From the NCBI GenBank assembly GCA_965237415.1, contig CBDEFM010000002.1:2592001-2656000 (forward strand): a stretch of DNA of 64,000 nucleotides, read 5' to 3'. Positions 42,930-48,711 of this stretch are shown one piece after another. The notes beneath the pieces were generated by a model. That model made no database searches and was not told the origin of the DNA. It saw only the letters and a list, made by a program, of their open reading frames with translations. A program made the translations under genes and the position numbers. Positions within the stretch are counted from its first letter, which is position 1, and each line of letters starts with the position of its first letter. The DNA is from Alphaproteobacteria bacterium (GTDB lineage: Bacteria > Pseudomonadota > Alphaproteobacteria > UBA828).

Positions 42930-45116
42930 TCACTCTCCTGCCGCCGGGCCCCTATTTCCGGTAAGCGCGGCCACCATGTTGTCGATCAGCCGCATGCCGA
43001 TCCCCTCGTCGAGGGAGAGGATCGATTCCGGGTGGAACTGCACGGCGGCGATCGGCTTGGCGCGGTGCTCCAGCGCCATGACGATGCCGTCGTCGGTTTC
43101 GGCAGTGACGGCGAGGAGGTCGTCGGGGAGCGACACGCGCCGGGCGTAGAGCGAGTGGTAGCGGCCGACGCGGAAGCGCCCCGGCAACCCCTGGAAGAGC
43201 GCGCTGCCCTGCACCGTGACCTCCGAGGGCTTGCCGTGGACCGGTTCGTCGAGCTGGTCGAGCCGGCCGCCGAAATACTCGGCCACGGCCTGCAGCCCGA
43301 GGCAGACGCCGAACAGCGGCACGTCCTTCGCCAGCACGAGGGCGATGGTCTCGGCGGTGCCGAAATCCTCGGGCCGGCCGGGGCCGGGCGAGAGCACGAC
43401 GAGATCGGGCGCGCCCTCCCGCAACGCTTGGCGCGCGGGCTCGGGCCGGAGCGTCTCGACCTGGGCGCCGGTCTGGCGCAGATAGTTGGCGAGCGTATGG
43501 ACAAACGAATCCTCGTGATCGACCAGAAGCACGCGCCGCGCAGTCCCCGGCCGGGCCGAGGGCGCGTGCGCCGGCGCCGGTGCGGCCTCAGCCCGCACGG
43601 CCGCGAATAGCGCGGACGCCTTGAGCCGGCACTCGTCGTCCTCGGCTTGCGGCTCGCTGTCGTAGAGCAGCGTGGCGCCGGCCCTGATCTCGGCGATTCC
43701 GTCCTTCATGCGCACGGTGCGGAGCGTGAGTCCAGTGTTCATCGCCCCGTCGAAGCCGATGCGGCCGATGGCGCCGCCGTACCAGCGCCGCGCCGAGCGC
43801 TCGTTCGCCTCGATGAAGCGGATCGCCCAGTGCTTGGGCGCGCCGGTCACCGTCACCGCCCAGGTGTGGCTGAGGAAGGCGTCGAGCGCATCGAACTCAG
43901 GGCGCAGGATGCCCTCCACGTGATCCACCGTGTGGATCAGGCGCGAGTAGAGCTCCACCTGCCGGCGCCCGATCACCCGCACGGAGCCCGGCTCGCAGAT
44001 ACGCGACTTGTCGTTGCGATCGACGTCGGTGCACATGGTGAGCTCGGCCTCGTCCTTGGCCGAGTTGAGGAGCTTCGCGATCTGGGCGGCGTCCCCCAAC
44101 GCGTCCTTGCCACGCGCGATGGTGCCAGAGATCGGGCAGGTCTCGACGCGGCGGCCCTCCACCCGCACATACATCTCGGGCGAGGCGGCGACCAGGAACT
44201 CGCCGGCGCCCAGGTTCATCAGCGCGCAGTAGGGCGCGGGGTTGAGGGTGCGCAGGCGGTCGAACACCGCGGACGGCGCATCGGCGCAGGATTCGCTGAA
44301 CTGTTGGCTCAGCACCACCTCGAAGAGGTCGCCCCGGCGGAACGCATCCCTGGCGCGCTCCACAGCCGCCGGGTATTCGCCCGGCTGATGGTCGTTGGCA
44401 GGCGGGTTGTTGCCGGGAAGCGCAGGCGCGTAGGCGTCCTCCCGAGGCGCGCGAGCCATGTCGCGCGTGTCGCCGGCCTGGGTGACGAAATCGTAGCGGT
44501 GCCACATTGCCCGGTCCGACATGTGATCGACGACAAGGATCTCGTCCGGCACGAAGAGCACCAGGTCGCGCTGGTCGGCGGGTCGCTCGAGGCGCAACTC
44601 CACCGGCTCGAACTGGTGGGCGAGGTCGTAGCCGAAGGCGCCGTAGAGACCGAAGTGCTGGTCCTCGTCGTTGCTGAAGAGCTCGATGACCGCGCGCAGC
44701 AAACTGAAGATGGAGGGCTGCCGGCTGCGCTGCTCCTCGGGCACGATCTCCGTCGGCCGGCGGATGCGTCCTTGAAGGCGATCGGCCTCCGCCTCCAGCG
44801 AGGCGACGGCATCGAGCGGCTCGATCGCGGCGCGGATCGGCTCGATCAGGACCTGGCCTCTCGGCTCCAGCGCCGTGACCTCGAAATCGCGCCCGCGGCA
44901 GATAATGGCGAGCGGCGGGGCGGCAAAGCCTAAGTCCCAGCGCGTGTAGCGGCCGGGGAACTCAAAACACGACGACATGAAGACGCCGGGGTGGCGGTCC
45001 AGCCGCTCGACCAAGGCCGCGGCCGCAGGCTCGCCGTCCACCTCCAAATCGCGGCGGTGGACCGTGATGCCGCCGCGGGTGCGGTAACGGCGGTCGAGGG
45101 TCGCAGGTTCGCTCAT
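42930..45116 (-). CDS. trpE: Fused anthranilate synthase TrpE(G)
   Basis: Rhizobial-type fusion: FPGRYTRWD, CPISGT, TWAVTVTGAPK, then the GATase part DHEDSFVHTL, GVCLG, QFHPES. Confidence 0.95.
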   Translation of the reverse strand: MSEPATLDRRYRTRGGITVHRRDLEVDGEPAAAALVERLDRHPGVFMSSCFEFPGRYTRWDLGFAAPPLAIICRGRDFEVTALEPRGQVLIEPIRAAIEPLDAVASLEAEADRLQGRIRRPTEIVPEEQRSRQPSIFSLLRAVIELFSNDEDQHFGLYGAFGYDLAHQFEPVELRLERPADQRDLVLFVPDEILVVDHMSDRAMWHRYDFVTQAGDTRDMARAPREDAYAPALPGNNPPANDHQPGEYPAAVERARDAFRRGDLFEVVLSQQFSESCADAPSAVFDRLRTLNPAPYCALMNLGAGEFLVAASPEMYVRVEGRRVETCPISGTIARGKDALGDAAQIAKLLNSAKDEAELTMCTDVDRNDKSRICEPGSVRVIGRRQVELYSRLIHTVDHVEGILRPEFDALDAFLSHTWAVTVTGAPKHWAIRFIEANERSARRWYGGAIGRIGFDGAMNTGLTLRTVRMKDGIAEIRAGATLLYDSEPQAEDDECRLKASALFAAVRAEAAPAPAHAPSARPGTARRVLLVDHEDSFVHTLANYLRQTGAQVETLRPEPARQALREGAPDLVVLSPGPGRPEDFGTAETIALVLAKDVPLFGVCLGLQAVAEYFGGRLDQLDEPVHGKPSEVTVQGSALFQGLPGRFRVGRYHSLYARRVSLPDDLLAVTAETDDGIVMALEHRAKPIAAVQFHPESILSLDEGIGMRLIDNMVAALTGNRGPAAGE

Positions 45117-45129
45117 GGCGCCCTTATCC

Positions 45130-45266
45130 CACCTGCCGACGGGGCCAACAAGCCCAGACCAGTTGAAATACGAACAGGGAACGGCAACGCGAGACTGTCG
45201 GCCGAGAAGGATCGTTCATTACGCCATGACCCAGCACCTGCGAACCGGGGCCCGACAAGCCCAGAC
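45130..45266. repeat. Imperfect ~30-bp direct repeat pair (45130-45159 and 45235-45266)
   Basis: CACCTGCCGACGGGGCCAACAAGCCCAGAC versus CACCTGCGAACCGGGGCCCGACAAGCCCAGAC. Confidence 0.75.
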
Positions 45267-45383
45267 AGGCTTGCGCCTGCCATCCGAAGTTCTTACGTTA
45301 ACGATTGACAGCTTGGACACTTCGGCGATACGAAAGGATGGTGCCATGTCTCCTGAAGCTACCAAAGGTGCCGAGCGGAACTA

Positions 45384-46208
45384 GTGATGAGCGAGTACCT
45401 ACCATATTCGGGCACTCATTCGATCCAAGAAGCGGTCATTGCGATTCATTTCCGGGGCAGAGTATCCCCCGAAGAAGTAAGGTATGCTAGGGACACCGCT
45501 AAGGCCGAGCTAGATAGTGTTCTTCCGCGGCTAAACGAACATCATCAAGTGCAAGAAATTAAGATAGAGCAGGGGCAGCTTTCTCAATTGTCTGGAGAGC
45601 CTCGCCTCGTAGGCTTTGAGCTATCGAAAGTGCAGGCAGATGCCAAACCGGCTCGCGTTCTTCGCTTGTTTGAAAACATGATAACCGTTAATTTTTTGCA
45701 GTACAAGGACTGGGGAACGACCCTGACTGCTAGTCTCGGGTATACCAAACTATTGTTGCAGGCCGTCAAACTTCCTGCAAACCCAGTTCAGGCGTTCAGC
45801 TTGAGGTACATTGATCGGTACACGTATGACGGCTCGTTGAATGAACCTAACGCTGGACTCCTTCTTCGGAAAGGAAACGACTACATAGCGCCGTCTTGTT
45901 TCGGCGCAGGTCCATTGTGGCATTGCCATTCTGGTTGGTTTGAGGCACTCAACAGTGTCGATAAGATCCTTAACCAACTCAATGTTGGAAGTACGATTGT
46001 TGATCAAGTTTCGACAGTTACTATTGACCACAATGCGATCTGCCAATTAAGTTTACCTCGACAATCCATTGAGGCTCTCTTCGAACCCCCGTCAGGGAAG
46101 GACGCTGGGATTGAATACGCGCTAGACCGCCTTCATGACAAGAATGGAGATATATTGAGGAACATGCTTGTGCCCGAGATGCTGGATAGGATTGGACTTC
46201 AAGCATGA
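45384..46208 (+). CDS. TIGR04255-like protein of unknown function
   Basis: Recalled family pattern: IQEAVIAIHF near the N-terminus, central Y..W, SLRYIDR, C-terminal LDRLH; AT-rich codon usage. Confidence 0.7.
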   Translation: MMSEYLPYSGTHSIQEAVIAIHFRGRVSPEEVRYARDTAKAELDSVLPRLNEHHQVQEIKIEQGQLSQLSGEPRLVGFELSKVQADAKPARVLRLFENMITVNFLQYKDWGTTLTASLGYTKLLLQAVKLPANPVQAFSLRYIDRYTYDGSLNEPNAGLLLRKGNDYIAPSCFGAGPLWHCHSGWFEALNSVDKILNQLNVGSTIVDQVSTVTIDHNAICQLSLPRQSIEALFEPPSGKDAGIEYALDRLHDKNGDILRNMLVPEMLDRIGLQA

Positions 46209-46759
46209 CTGCGTCTAATTCGGAATTGAATTATCAGACCTCCATGCTTGGGGCAATATCGTACGACATGGGCGTAGAGGAAATTGGCCGTGTGGAATGG
46301 CCTCAAATAACAGATTTAGAAGATTGTTCGGTTAAATTGATCGGAGAAAAACTTGTCTTAATTACCGCGGTTGCGCCTTTCGAGAAGATGACGGTTGCGC
46401 CGCCGACGCTTTCAACGGTGCATAAACTGACAATGAAATTGAAATCTCTTCAGAATATGCCCGATAACGAAAAATGGCCTGGATCCACCTGGCCCAGCGC
46501 TCAAGCCTTTGAGGACGCACATCTGTTCATTCATCGCTCAACTTTAAGCTCGATTCCGACACCTGAGGTCAAATTAGCAAACGATGGCGAAATAAATTTC
46601 CTGTGGACGGGAAATGAGGTTCATGTTGATTTAGGATTCTATGGAACGGGCGCGTTTAGCTATTTTGCGCGCGGAAATGATGAACGAAGGCTCCACGGAG
46701 AATGTGTGCCGGCATCAAAAGGTTTGCCGCAGGAAATAGTGGCGCTGTTCGCGGCTTAG
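46205..46759 (+). CDS. Hypothetical protein (L..L....W....P...P.P....DGEINFLW domain)
   Basis: 184-aa ORF in AT-rich DNA, ATGA-coupled to the upstream gene, with a globular-looking C-terminal ~110 aa. Confidence 0.7.
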   Translation: MTASNSELNYQTSMLGAISYDMGVEEIGRVEWPQITDLEDCSVKLIGEKLVLITAVAPFEKMTVAPPTLSTVHKLTMKLKSLQNMPDNEKWPGSTWPSAQAFEDAHLFIHRSTLSSIPTPEVKLANDGEINFLWTGNEVHVDLGFYGTGAFSYFARGNDERRLHGECVPASKGLPQEIVALFAA

Positions 46760-46766
46760 TTCAACA

Positions 46767-47258
46767 TTGACAGGCTCTTCTCCCCACCTAGATGAATATA
46801 CTAGTGCCACACCGGATATTTCACCCGGAGTTGTCGAGGATTCTGAACTCCTACTTCGCGAGATGTTTAATCCCCATCACGTGAAGAATGGGAAACTTCT
46901 CGAAACAGCGATATCCCTAGACGATTTGCTATCAAGAGGGTTTTCTGTTCATCGAATTACGTACGTGAGTCGAGAACTCGTCAAAGGGTCAATGAAGGAA
47001 CGCTTTTCAAGACCGAGACGGGGACCAGCCTGGAAAGAAGAGGGAGTGGCGAGACTACAAACTGGCGCAGTTCGCCGCCTTCGAGTCGATGACCAACAGG
47101 CCCTAGTGGTGATCGATACGGCAGACGCAAGTAATCAGGGACACGCCAGCATATACGCTAAGGCGCCGGACATTGGCAAAGCGCATGCGCGGGAACTGCG
47201 GTCACTATTGCTGCCACTCTTGCAGGAAAGAATGTCCGTAGATCAAGCGTTTGAGTAG
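46767..47258 (+). CDS. Hypothetical protein, possible ADP-ribosyltransferase-like fold
   Basis: 163-aa ORF (TTG start) 7 bp after the previous stop; LLR...GFSVHR...GHASI pattern. The fold assignment is inference only. Confidence 0.6.
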   Translation: MTGSSPHLDEYTSATPDISPGVVEDSELLLREMFNPHHVKNGKLLETAISLDDLLSRGFSVHRITYVSRELVKGSMKERFSRPRRGPAWKEEGVARLQTGAVRRLRVDDQQALVVIDTADASNQGHASIYAKAPDIGKAHARELRSLLLPLLQERMSVDQAFE

Positions 47259-47286
47259 GTGCCCAGATGGGTTTTAGAGGCCGCCC

Positions 47287-48711
47287 TCACGCCCGCCGTA
47301 ACTCCACGATGGATTCGTAGAGTGTCCCACCATTCGCCTTGCCGGCACGAACACTTGACTCGACGATGCTGCTACCGACCCGGGTTTCGCGGGGAACGTG
47401 AATTTCTATCACCCGGAAGCCGCGCGATTCAGCGATGGCGGCGAGGAAGCGATCGGTCGGGATCGGCACCCCCTGCAAGATGGAGTTGCCGATGACGACC
47501 AGGGCGGTCGCCTTCGGACGCAAGCACCAGGCCGCACCGTCGAGGAAGCGGGCACAGTCGTTGAAATACTGAGCCGCGTAGTTGGCCCAGCCGTTGCCGC
47601 CGTAGACGCCCTTGTCGGGGTTCCGCTGCCGCACCGTGTCGATGGCCTCTCGAATCGCGCTGTCGTCGATGGAGGGGTCGAGGTCGATCCGCGCTTCGTC
47701 ACGGGCGTTCTGCCAGTAGGTGCCGAAGTTGAGCTCTTCCAGCCGCTTCATCTCGCGTGGTGCGGCGCAGAATCCCAGCCAGTAGAGGTGCGGGCGCGTG
47801 TTGCGGTTGTAGTGGTAGTTGTTGAGATAGGGCGGTGAGGTGACGAGCAGGTCCACGCTTTCCGCCGGGATCGCACTGTAGCCGTCGAAGAACGAGCGCT
47901 CGAAGACTCGCCCGTCCCCTCGCTCGGGGTTCTCGCGCGCGCCGCGATACCAGGCGGCATCGTCCGCCATCTGACGGAGCTTGGCCGCAATGGCACCTGC
48001 CACGTCGTCATCCACGACCTCCGGCCGCCCGACCGACGCCTTGCGACCGAGGCTCGGCTCGTAGGAATAGTTTGAGTAACCCACCATTGTCGCCGCAAAG
48101 GCGAGACGGAATAGGCTGGCGATCGGCGTCTCCAGCGGCGCCATGAAATCGAAGGCCAAGAGGACCTTGCGCTCGACCGCCGGGCTGTAGAACGGCGCCC
48201 GCGTGCGGAAGGCGGCGGGAGGCACCGCCTCGGGCGCGCAGCCTGCGTGCTCGCTATCCTCCATGAACGCAACGAATTCCGCGACGGAGGCCCTGAGCTG
48301 CGCGGGCTCCAGCCGATGGGCCCCTAACTTCGTCCGCGCGGCGAAAGCAGCGTAGGGATTGATTTCGAAGCCGATAGCCTCGTGGCCTGCGAGGTCGGCT
48401 TCGATCAGCGTCGTGCCGACGCCGGCGAAGGGATCGAGCACCACGCCCTGCTCCGGCCCCGACAAGTGACGGTCCAGCGCGTCCTGAACGAACTGCCGGG
48501 AAAAGCCCGCGATCCAGGGAACCCACCGGTGCACCGGCGTCTCCCGGTTGGCCATGAAGGCGGGGTCGCGGAATCCTCCGCGCTGGGGAGCCCGGCCGTC
48601 GGTGACTTCAGGCGGCCGGTCCCCCAAGGGCGAACCGCTATCTTCCCGTTCACGTCGTGCGCCGACGCGGTCTTCGAACTGAAACTCTGCCTGTCGCGGA
48701 TGCTGCGGCAT
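47287..48711 (-). CDS. Amino-DNA methyltransferase, probably m4C, alpha-type motif order
   Basis: HRWVPWIAGFS, motif I VLDPFAGVGT followed by GFEINP, later motif IV VTSPPY. Confidence 0.88.
   Translation of the reverse strand: MPQHPRQAEFQFEDRVGARREREDSGSPLGDRPPEVTDGRAPQRGGFRDPAFMANRETPVHRWVPWIAGFSRQFVQDALDRHLSGPEQGVVLDPFAGVGTTLIEADLAGHEAIGFEINPYAAFAARTKLGAHRLEPAQLRASVAEFVAFMEDSEHAGCAPEAVPPAAFRTRAPFYSPAVERKVLLAFDFMAPLETPIASLFRLAFAATMVGYSNYSYEPSLGRKASVGRPEVVDDDVAGAIAAKLRQMADDAAWYRGARENPERGDGRVFERSFFDGYSAIPAESVDLLVTSPPYLNNYHYNRNTRPHLYWLGFCAAPREMKRLEELNFGTYWQNARDEARIDLDPSIDDSAIREAIDTVRQRNPDKGVYGGNGWANYAAQYFNDCARFLDGAAWCLRPKATALVVIGNSILQGVPIPTDRFLAAIAESRGFRVIEIHVPRETRVGSSIVESSVRAGKANGGTLYESIVELRRA

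Follow-up and report, generated by a model that had tools for sequence, protein, structure and literature searches.

A candidate tripartite toxin-antitoxin-type cassette headed by a TIGR04255 protein in an alphaproteobacterial chromosome

In the CmdTAC system, as set out by Vassallo et al. 2024 (PMC11618068), a chaperone senses a capsid protein, upon which the antitoxin is degraded and an ADP-ribosyltransferase (ART) toxin modifies mRNA; and chaperones and toxin-antitoxin (TA) units, HigBAC among them, are presented by Mets et al. 2024 (10.1101/2024.02.24.581848) as recombinable. Here we describe a cassette of three genes (ORF1, ORF2 and ORF3) in an Alphaproteobacteria bacterium (assembly GCA_965237415.1), lying within a window of 64,000 nucleotides (contig CBDEFM010000002.1, positions 2,592,001 to 2,656,000). 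The closest catalogued item is the PADLOC candidate PDC-M32 (M32A plus M32B), which profile matches suggest to be a related, two-gene cousin. PDC-M32 is one of 145 in silico "guilt-by-embedding" candidates of Payne et al. 2024 (10.1101/2024.01.29.577857); as presented there, the candidates, PDC-M32 included, were nominated for being embedded within defence systems, and the bench tests are those of the HEC systems. We found no bench test of PDC-M32 in the literature, where the term came up in a single paper, which enumerates what PADLOC detects in S. meliloti prophages (PMC12429752). The first gene of the cassette belongs to TIGR04255, which NCBIfam presents as a "sporadically distributed" family with function unassigned and gene context unstated, and whose accession was not met in our literature search.

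We put at about even the chance that this cassette is a mobile tripartite toxin-antitoxin or abortive-infection-type module, in which ORF3 would be the toxin, ORF2 the antitoxin and ORF1 an accessory sensor- or chaperone-like protein. The linkage of the genes across bacteria bears directly on this reading. A scan of species-representative genomes, in which genes were called with profile HMMs, yielded 25 loci anchored on ORF3 relatives, and these derive, according to their record titles, from at least seven phylum-level groups (Alphaproteobacteria, Gammaproteobacteria, Thermodesulfobacteriota, Binatia, Nitrospinota, Spirochaetia and Dehalococcoidia). In all but one of the 25 (24 loci), the gene immediately preceding the ORF3 relative encodes an ORF2 relative; the last locus (L021) has a lone, truncated ORF3-like gene. 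TIGR04255 heads the pair in 12 loci, and the other 12 contain only the ORF2-like and ORF3-like genes, nine of these being syntenic and from one lineage, such that there are about four independent pair-only cases, and one (L012) having too little upstream DNA to judge TIGR04255. Going by these sequences, the ORF2-ORF3 pair is the conserved core, and TIGR04255 is optional there. A first-pass annotation of the window had proposed the three genes as a tripartite module: their co-occurrence is borne out, in that the trio recurs in distant phyla, whereas an obligate trio is contradicted by the half of the ORF3 loci that lack TIGR04255.

The organization of gene 2 varies with the presence of TIGR04255. 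Residues 1-59 of ORF2 are predicted to be disordered and residues 70-184 form a confidently modelled, conserved alpha+beta domain. Relatives of this gene encode 170-362 aa in every one of the 12 trios. Among the 12 pairs, 11 have a version of 130-153 aa, and the exception, L010, encodes 187 aa. Because the length of the tail tracks the presence of TIGR04255, the disordered tail is the best candidate for the part on which TIGR04255 would act. At locus L015 (5548-5976), gene 2 opens with about 21 residues resembling the N-terminus of ORF1 and then continues into the ORF2 C-terminal domain, which looks like the outcome of an in-frame deletion that fused the start of gene 1 to gene 2, with gene 1 and the tail lost and the pair kept. 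A D/N-Y-x-T-S-M-type motif near the N-terminus of ORF2 tails occurs in closer relatives only and is too weak to build on. Within the genus, genome G004 carries a distant ORF2-like and ORF3-like pair at another chromosomal place (C1:3651334-3654666; L004, 729-1950; HMM E 9e-15 and 1e-19), with TIGR04255 not detected within 1.5 kb upstream.

Structure prediction supports an association of the two core proteins. When ORF3 was modelled with residues 60-184 of ORF2, the complex reached ipSAE values of 0.89, 0.87 and 0.87, as against 0.01 for the best of three controls, and in the benchmark the ipSAE mark is reached by 58 of 80 solved complexes vs. 2 of 110 mismatched pairs. Agreement of contacts between runs was at least 80%, and the partner pLDDT was at least 86. 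The modelled interface comprises the invariant residues W91, P92, A125-N131, D142 and L143 on the ORF2 side and residues 35-57, 79-86 and 137-146 on the ORF3 side. ORF2 is, therefore, predicted to bind ORF3 directly, as an antitoxin would, in keeping with the role it had been given at first pass. The features by which type II TA pairs are recognized, i.e., small adjacent genes whose products bind, are found here in silico, in the 7-nt gap, the linkage and the predicted complex. Fold matches to ORF2 in the VIA search are weak and mixed: the top row is Med17C (Z 6.9), followed by, among others, TriTu, the immunity protein of an ART toxin (Z 5.7, rmsd 2.6, 75 aligned), a CDI immunity protein (Z 4.2) and the AvrPphF ORF1 chaperone (Z 3.6), and Foldseek returned no match of the ORF2 model to the PDB at E <= 0.001. 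We saw no enzyme-like features in ORF2, and the search for longer or fused forms of its domain found none, which according to the tool is weak evidence.

The AlphaFold model of ORF3 (pLDDT 93.3, pTM 0.88) retrieved from the VIA fold search a list of 50 rows, and when these are sorted by entry title, no fewer than 30 belong to the ART superfamily, as ARTs, as toxins with NAD+ glycohydrolase activity or as enzymes of the Tpt1/KptA type. The best row (9ld3_A; Z 6.0, rmsd 3.0, 93 aligned) is an ADP-ribose-bound complex; Tse2 follows with Z 5.3 (rmsd 3.1, 104 aligned), and further rows include Tpt1/KptA, AvrPphF ORF2, DarT, pertussis toxin S1, heat-labile enterotoxin, Scabin, NarE, TreX, TreTu, Tne2, SPN, SdeA, C3 and pierisin. 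The make-up of this list supports, at the level of fold only, a stand-alone ART-like model for ORF3. An atlas also places ORF3 near the Tse2 ART cluster (0.83), which we treat as a lead only; the same atlas proposed DUF6098 (0.90, with a low shared count), an assignment that we rejected, as a Pfam hmmscan did not confirm it.

Conservation across the family points to a putative catalytic set. Across 44 third-gene proteins that span several subfamilies, R31 never varies and conservation of S60 and H126 reaches 90% or more, and R-S-H also occurs in 125 of the 128 further cluster representatives (of 146) that cover all three columns. In the ORF3 model these residues lie on successive strands (R31 on 28-35, S60 on 59-63 and H126 on 126-131), an arrangement that follows the strand order of the ART triad. 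E27, G58, R63, R103 and D117 are also near-invariant in the closer ORF3 family, the conservation of R63 and R103 being absent across the wider third-gene superfamily. A word-indexed search gave 90 relatives of ORF3, none named and none with a Pfam domain; the exhaustive search gave 4,248 clusters (at 50% identity) with E <= 0.001, a number that drops to 778 at E <= 1e-10 and to 43 at E <= 1e-30. Of these 4,248 clusters, the top 150 all consist of stand-alone proteins of 72-230 aa, and among them we found no secretion-associated domain, fusion or secretion context. The ORF3 family would accordingly fit an intracellular toxin of the TA type better than a secreted polymorphic-toxin domain.

The gene at the head of the cassette leads similar arrangements elsewhere. 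ORF1 matches TIGR04255 at 42.5 bits against a cutoff of 30 (E 6.6e-11; residues 11-271 on positions 4-252 of 252 of the profile; 41.9 bits in the genome-wide search), which confirms the family named at first pass, and the atlas places it only in unnamed, TIGR04255-like clusters. It is a low-scoring, divergent member, in that the TIGR04255 proteins leading other cassette types score 83-153 bits. Within the class, 22 of 301 sampled genomes (about 7%) contain TIGR04255, at 27 loci, vs. none of 14 control genomes. After three loci (L035, L052 and L055) were left out due to ambiguous ORF calls in high-GC DNA, 24 had a readable gene order, and in all 24 TIGR04255 precedes one or two closely spaced genes on the same strand, the GC content of the unit being lower than that of the flanks in most cases. 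The second genes of 19 of the 24 loci fall into two ORF2-related clusters (15 and 4 members, linked to each other at 83% probability; phmmer and hhalign), and a third gene was callable in 21 loci, 18 of which have one from four ORF3-related clusters (65-85% probability, hhalign), as compared to less than 0.5% in all control alignments of second to third genes. One further third gene, that of L045, was picked up with the ORF3 HMM (E 9e-6). Pfam matched none of the 21 third genes and only one of the 24 second genes, as an HTH. At two loci (L030 and L031), the downstream pair is of a different kind, belonging to clusters that we term g2C and g3D. From these comparisons, TIGR04255 is the apparent constant part and the downstream pairs are exchangeable, while ORF2 and ORF3 also occur as a pair on their own.

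Cassettes of the g2C/g3D variant occur on mobile elements: in seven Burkholderia phage records, in one uncultured phage record and on six plasmids, five of them conjugative. In the P2-like Burkholderia phage vB_SBP21 (L063, 3980-7268), the cassette (genes of 271, 175 and 236 aa) is situated in the accessory region that extends from integrase to portal, with the integrase on one side and, directly on the other, an annotated toxin/antidote pair that itself adjoins the portal gene. On the Rhizobium conjugative plasmid pCB3060_2 (L064, 1180-3477), the variant cassette lies beside a multiubiquitin/ThiF/DUF6527 operon and IS110, a neighbourhood that looks like a small defence-type island. A QueC-like gene also adjoins the TIGR04255 cassette on this plasmid. 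We surveyed the flanks of 17 non-redundant loci (131 ORFs), for which there is no background against which to gauge enrichment, and encountered transposases (rve, IS1595, DDE_Tnp_1, Mutator and IstB) and defence-type genes (Septu PtuA in two loci, Cas1, AIPR, PIN in two loci, and methyltransferases). Of the gene-neighbourhood expectations raised at first pass, the linkage of ORF2 to ORF3 holds and that of TIGR04255 holds for 12 of the 25 loci, and enrichment near defence genes is not claimed.

The three proteins have been maintained by selection. A second copy of the cassette occupies the same site, with the same low GC content, in another genome of the genus (G005), and comparison of the two yields dN/dS values of 0.12 for ORF1, 0.15 for ORF2 and 0.18 for ORF3; therefore, all three are real proteins under purifying selection. 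Synonymous divergence from this copy (dS of 0.74, 0.84 and 0.42 for ORF1, ORF2 and ORF3) is at or above that of the flanking genes (0.39 for trpE(G) and 0.36 for an oxidoreductase), and because the copy is at the same site, the cassette is not a very recent arrival. An intact, horizontally acquired module, as the first-pass annotation had it, is upheld, and the claim that its acquisition was recent is not. The TrpE(G) of G005 is no closer to that of this genome (88.7% identity) than are those of genomes with an empty site (89-92%), and the third-codon GC of the cassette has remained at about 0.47 in both species, against 0.8-0.9 for their own genes, despite the divergence in dS (G005 locus L005, 4621-6489). 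The two copies may have been acquired independently, or they may have been exchanged between genomes by recombination in the flanking sequence.

Starting from the fold class, triad, predicted complex, linkage and modularity obtained in silico, the following mechanism can be proposed. ORF3 would use NAD+ to modify or deplete an essential target, causing growth arrest, and because there are three further invariant arginines, this target would most likely be nucleic acid or another phosphate-bearing substrate. ORF2 would neutralise ORF3 by binding, and ORF1, the optional TIGR04255 protein, may act on the disordered N-terminal tail of ORF2, either stabilising the antitoxin or releasing it upon a trigger such as phage infection. 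The overall logic would be that of toxin-antitoxin-chaperone (TAC) systems, assembled from unrelated proteins. A bolder extension holds that TIGR04255 is a new infection sensor or adaptor mounted on interchangeable two-gene TA "warheads" of at least two unrelated types, following a TAC logic free of SecB, and that ORF3 stands at the root of an extensive R-S-H branch of the ART superfamily, as yet without a name, which modifies a nucleic acid or another phosphate-bearing target; we offer this only tentatively and hold it to be doubtful.

Several observations weigh against an ART-type TA or abortive-infection module. Every fold match to ORF3 is weak (Z <= 6.0, when according to the tool the best Z typical of a protein with no true relative is 7-8), and Foldseek found no match of the ORF3 model in the PDB or BFVD at E <= 0.001; because each single match is weak, the argument for the fold lies in the make-up of the VIA list. 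The catalytic glutamate of canonical ARTs is not conserved, the residues being neither R-S-E nor H-Y-E, and the placement of H126 at the position of this glutamate is deduced from strand order and not from superposition. The "ART-like" label given at first pass is supported at the level of fold only, and the companion fold and multimer predictions give a supported ORF2-ORF3 complex beside weak, mixed matches for ORF2. R31, S60 and H126 are absent from the listed interface residues, which lends no support to occlusion of an active site by ORF2. A sensor- or chaperone-like role for ORF1 is conjectural, and the partners of TIGR04255 include genes that have no relation to ORF2 or ORF3 (g2C/g3D). 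Finally, tblastn of ORF1 and ORF3 against phage and plasmid collections (50,697 phage records for ORF3) returned no match, and the flanks of the 17 surveyed loci mix mobile and defence genes with many housekeeping genes.

Some of the same observations would be expected if the cassette were a plain selfish addiction module, in which ORF2 and ORF3, as a type II TA pair, stabilise their own DNA with no sensing of phages and TIGR04255 is a dispensable regulator or passenger. The pair occurs without TIGR04255 in 12 of 25 loci (nine syntenic in one lineage), it outlives the deletion of gene 1 in L015, many loci sit among housekeeping genes, and the cassette described here resides in a chromosomal spacer with no defence island. 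Against this, TIGR04255 evolves under purifying selection (dN/dS of 0.12) and heads the same layout in all 24 loci with a readable gene order (of 27), and the variant cassette has been found in a phage accessory slot and at a plasmid site beside a ubiquitin-like operon. These points, along with the nomination of the related PDC-M32 as embedded within defence systems in the account of Payne et al. 2024 (10.1101/2024.01.29.577857), lead us to consider a purely selfish module unlikely.

Alternatively, ORF3 might be no toxin at all, and instead a Tpt1/KptA-like, NAD+-dependent enzyme of nucleic-acid repair or modification with ORF1 and ORF2 as its cofactors or regulators. Tpt1 accounts for four of the 13 best VIA rows, the top row is ADP-ribose-bound, and the near-invariance of R31, R63, R103 and H126 in the closer family recalls the catalytic Arg-His-Arg-Arg set of Tpt1. 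However, ORF3 is a single domain of 163 aa, its matches to Tpt1 are confined to the lobe that binds NAD+, R63 and R103 lose their conservation in the wider superfamily, and a patchy distribution by horizontal transfer (4 of 41 relatives, about 47% vs. about 69% GC, and a variant on phages and a plasmid) fits a gene of conflict better than a housekeeping gene, all of which makes a repair enzyme improbable. Least probable, in our view, is that the cassette serves a phage or other mobile element in anti-defence or host takeover, such that ORF3 modifies a host factor and ORF2 is its chaperone. This would account for the TIGR04255-led cassettes in the seven Burkholderia and one uncultured phage records, and for the weak resemblance of ORF2 to the AvrPphF ORF1 chaperone (Z 3.6) and of ORF3 to the AvrPphF ORF2 effector (Z 4.9); but the phage-borne cassettes are of the variant type, with second and third genes unrelated to ORF2 and ORF3, ORF3 itself has no tblastn match in the phage records searched, and two species retain the cassette at one and the same chromosomal position, with its genes evolving under purifying selection.

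If the tripartite TA or abortive-infection reading is correct, a sizeable block of "hypothetical" genes would gain a mechanism, since the third-gene superfamily (4,248 clusters) and TIGR04255 (about 7% of sampled class genomes) have no assigned function, and genes 2 and 3 have neither a structure nor a Pfam name. The ADP-ribosyltransferase superfamily would gain a branch with a non-canonical triad, and accessory-controlled toxin-antitoxin immunity would have been invented a second time, independently. At 2.1 kb, the system is small, and both pair and trio are directly testable in E. coli.

The cassette is an insertion of about 2.1 kb (about 45150-47286) into a variable spacer between the genes for a type II DNA methyltransferase (MTase) and TrpE(G), a fused anthranilate synthase, the two neighbours recognized at first pass (Table 1). 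Comparison of this spacer, from MTase stop to trpE(G) start, in 12 other genomes of the genus places the cassette also in G005. The spacer measures 53-125 bp in nine of these genomes; in G004 and G020 it spans 1,557 bp and 1,455 bp, respectively, and is filled by unrelated DNA of host-like GC content. The G020 insert encodes an ORF of 298 aa with a lipoprotein-like N-terminus. ORF3 is patchy in occurrence (4 of 41 relatives), with a high-identity copy in just one other genome of the genus, G005, the G004 gene being a distant relative elsewhere in the genome.

Approximately 38 bp adjoining the trpE(G) ATG are common to the relatives. A 19-nt direct repeat, 89% identical (45141-45159 and 45248-45266), has both copies on the left side of the insert, and may be a piece of the original spacer duplicated at insertion; one copy falls in the sequence that is conserved immediately ahead of trpE(G). 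We found no integrase, transposase or bounding repeats at the insert, this one-sided pair being the only repeat, and on these grounds rejected a site-specific mobile element. The MTase beside the cassette had been taken at first pass as a sign of defence. Its ortholog is present in 16 of the 20 other genomes of the genus (76-92% identity), and because the MTase belongs to the core gene set of this genus, its adjacency is accidental and uninformative on defence, so that the reading of this neighbourhood as a defence island was rejected. The MTase gene shows in-frame stops in G005 (TAA; C3:1178789-1180114) and G001 (TAG) and is split into two pieces in G013 and G014, such that this core gene may be decaying in several lineages.

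Table 1. Features of the cassette and its flanks (positions in the 64,000-nt window)
Feature	Position	Strand	Remarks
trpE(G), fused anthranilate synthase	42930-45116	-	flank, outside cassette
Left junction and 5' region of insertion	45117-45383	+	TTGACA; 19-nt direct repeat
ORF1	45384-46208	+	274 aa; GTG start at 45384, ATG at 45387; TIGR04255 family
ORF2	46205-46759	+	184 aa; disordered N-terminal tail and alpha+beta C-terminal domain; putative antitoxin
ORF3	46767-47258	+	163 aa; TTG start; ART-superfamily-like fold; putative toxin
Type II DNA methyltransferase (MTase)	47287-48711	-	flank, outside cassette; core gene of genus

The three ORFs are intact, co-directional and tightly coupled, with an ATGA overlap between ORF1 and ORF2 and 7 nt between ORF2 and ORF3, all as first annotated. 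Also as annotated, GC content falls sharply, to 0.455-0.53 per 400-nt window over 45200-47199, from 0.68-0.74 in trpE(G), and it is 0.65-0.74 beyond 47400; the island averages about 47% in a genome of about 69%, and third-codon GC is 0.47-0.50 in the cassette genes vs. 0.90 in trpE(G) and 0.81 in the MTase gene. The TTGACA at 45305-45310 upstream of ORF1 is present and -35-like. A promoter scan found no acceptable -10 partner for it and gives no support to a full sigma-70 site, and one contig of an RNA library (run X2) begins at 45321, inside the spacer that such a promoter would need. Contigs of another run of RNA libraries (X1), from one study, cover 45347-47320 with 1-7 mismatches, which is compatible with transcription of the cassette; contigs of this kind, given possible DNA carry-over, cannot show transcription, starts or levels, and uncovered parts amount to no evidence. 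Rfam found no RNA family in 44900-47500. An ORF of 89 aa (45115-45384, +) that runs across the left junction shares sequence with the beginning of trpE(G) as well as with both repeat copies; it is unsupported and most likely spurious.

Searches of named families returned little for these proteins. Apart from one spurious HTH_NPRL3 hit, ORF1-3 had no match to Pfam at E <= 1, ORF2 and ORF3 fell into no family of Pfam, NCBIfam or PHROG, and a PHROGs search of the cassette proteins found nothing. In PADLOC, ORF1 and ORF3 had no match (ORF3 at E <= 1) and ORF2 matched only PDC-M32A, faintly. Sequence searches of the PDB with ORF1, ORF2, ORF3 and the profiles A6 and A1 yielded nothing meaningful.

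With regard to known systems, the cassette is, as the first-pass annotation supposed, not recognizably CmdTAC or another named system, since no component of such a system is matched in Pfam or PADLOC; PADLOC 2.0.0 contains CmdTAC models. The first-pass label of an undescribed system needs tempering, in that PDC-M32 appears to be a related two-gene form. The C-terminal part of PDC-M32A (about positions 257-368 of 375) matches gene 2 in eight of 24 cassettes (best E 1.4e-11), and ORF2 itself only weakly (E 0.062, 10.4 bits; residues 74-146 on profile positions 257-329 of 375). PDC-M32A is about twice as long as ORF2, which lacks its N-terminal part; PDC-M32B (123-131 positions) matches two of 21 third genes, weakly (E 0.003-0.004), and not ORF3; and no PDC-M32 model matches TIGR04255. 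What the two share, beyond gene 2, is a small two-gene unit whose mechanism is likewise unassigned.

Similarities to DarTG, Tse2-Tsi2 and TreTu-TriTu are confined to structure, there being no sequence similarity in phmmer or hmmsearch comparisons to the PDB. ORF2 has no macrodomain, unlike DarG, and the ORF3 family, unlike Tse2-Tsi2 and TreTu-TriTu, shows no secretion-associated domain, fusion or secretion context. On the other hand, DarT (Z 3.9, 3.8 and 3.2), Tse2 (5.3) and TreTu (2.9) all appear in the VIA list of ORF3, the ORF2 domain resembles the immunity protein TriTu (Z 5.7), and, as in the Tse2-Tsi2 and TreTu-TriTu pairs, the small partner is predicted to neutralise by binding and not by enzymatic reversal.

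From CmdTAC and HigBAC the cassette differs in the components themselves. Neither Pfam nor PADLOC finds a SecB-like domain in ORF1-3, and ORF3, as opposed to CmdT and HigB, has no match in PADLOC, Pfam or NCBIfam; the ART-like ORF3 carries R-S-H rather than the canonical triad, the tail of the putative antitoxin is N-terminal, and the gene order is accessory-antitoxin-toxin. The likeness, so far as those systems are described in the accounts cited at the outset, would lie in a three-part logic of ART toxin, antitoxin and a third protein acting on the antitoxin, and in the ability of the third protein to combine with different TA units. As with the ChAD element, an extension of the putative antitoxin here tracks the presence of the third protein, being lacking from 11 of the 12 pairs that stand without it (L010, at 187 aa, being the exception).

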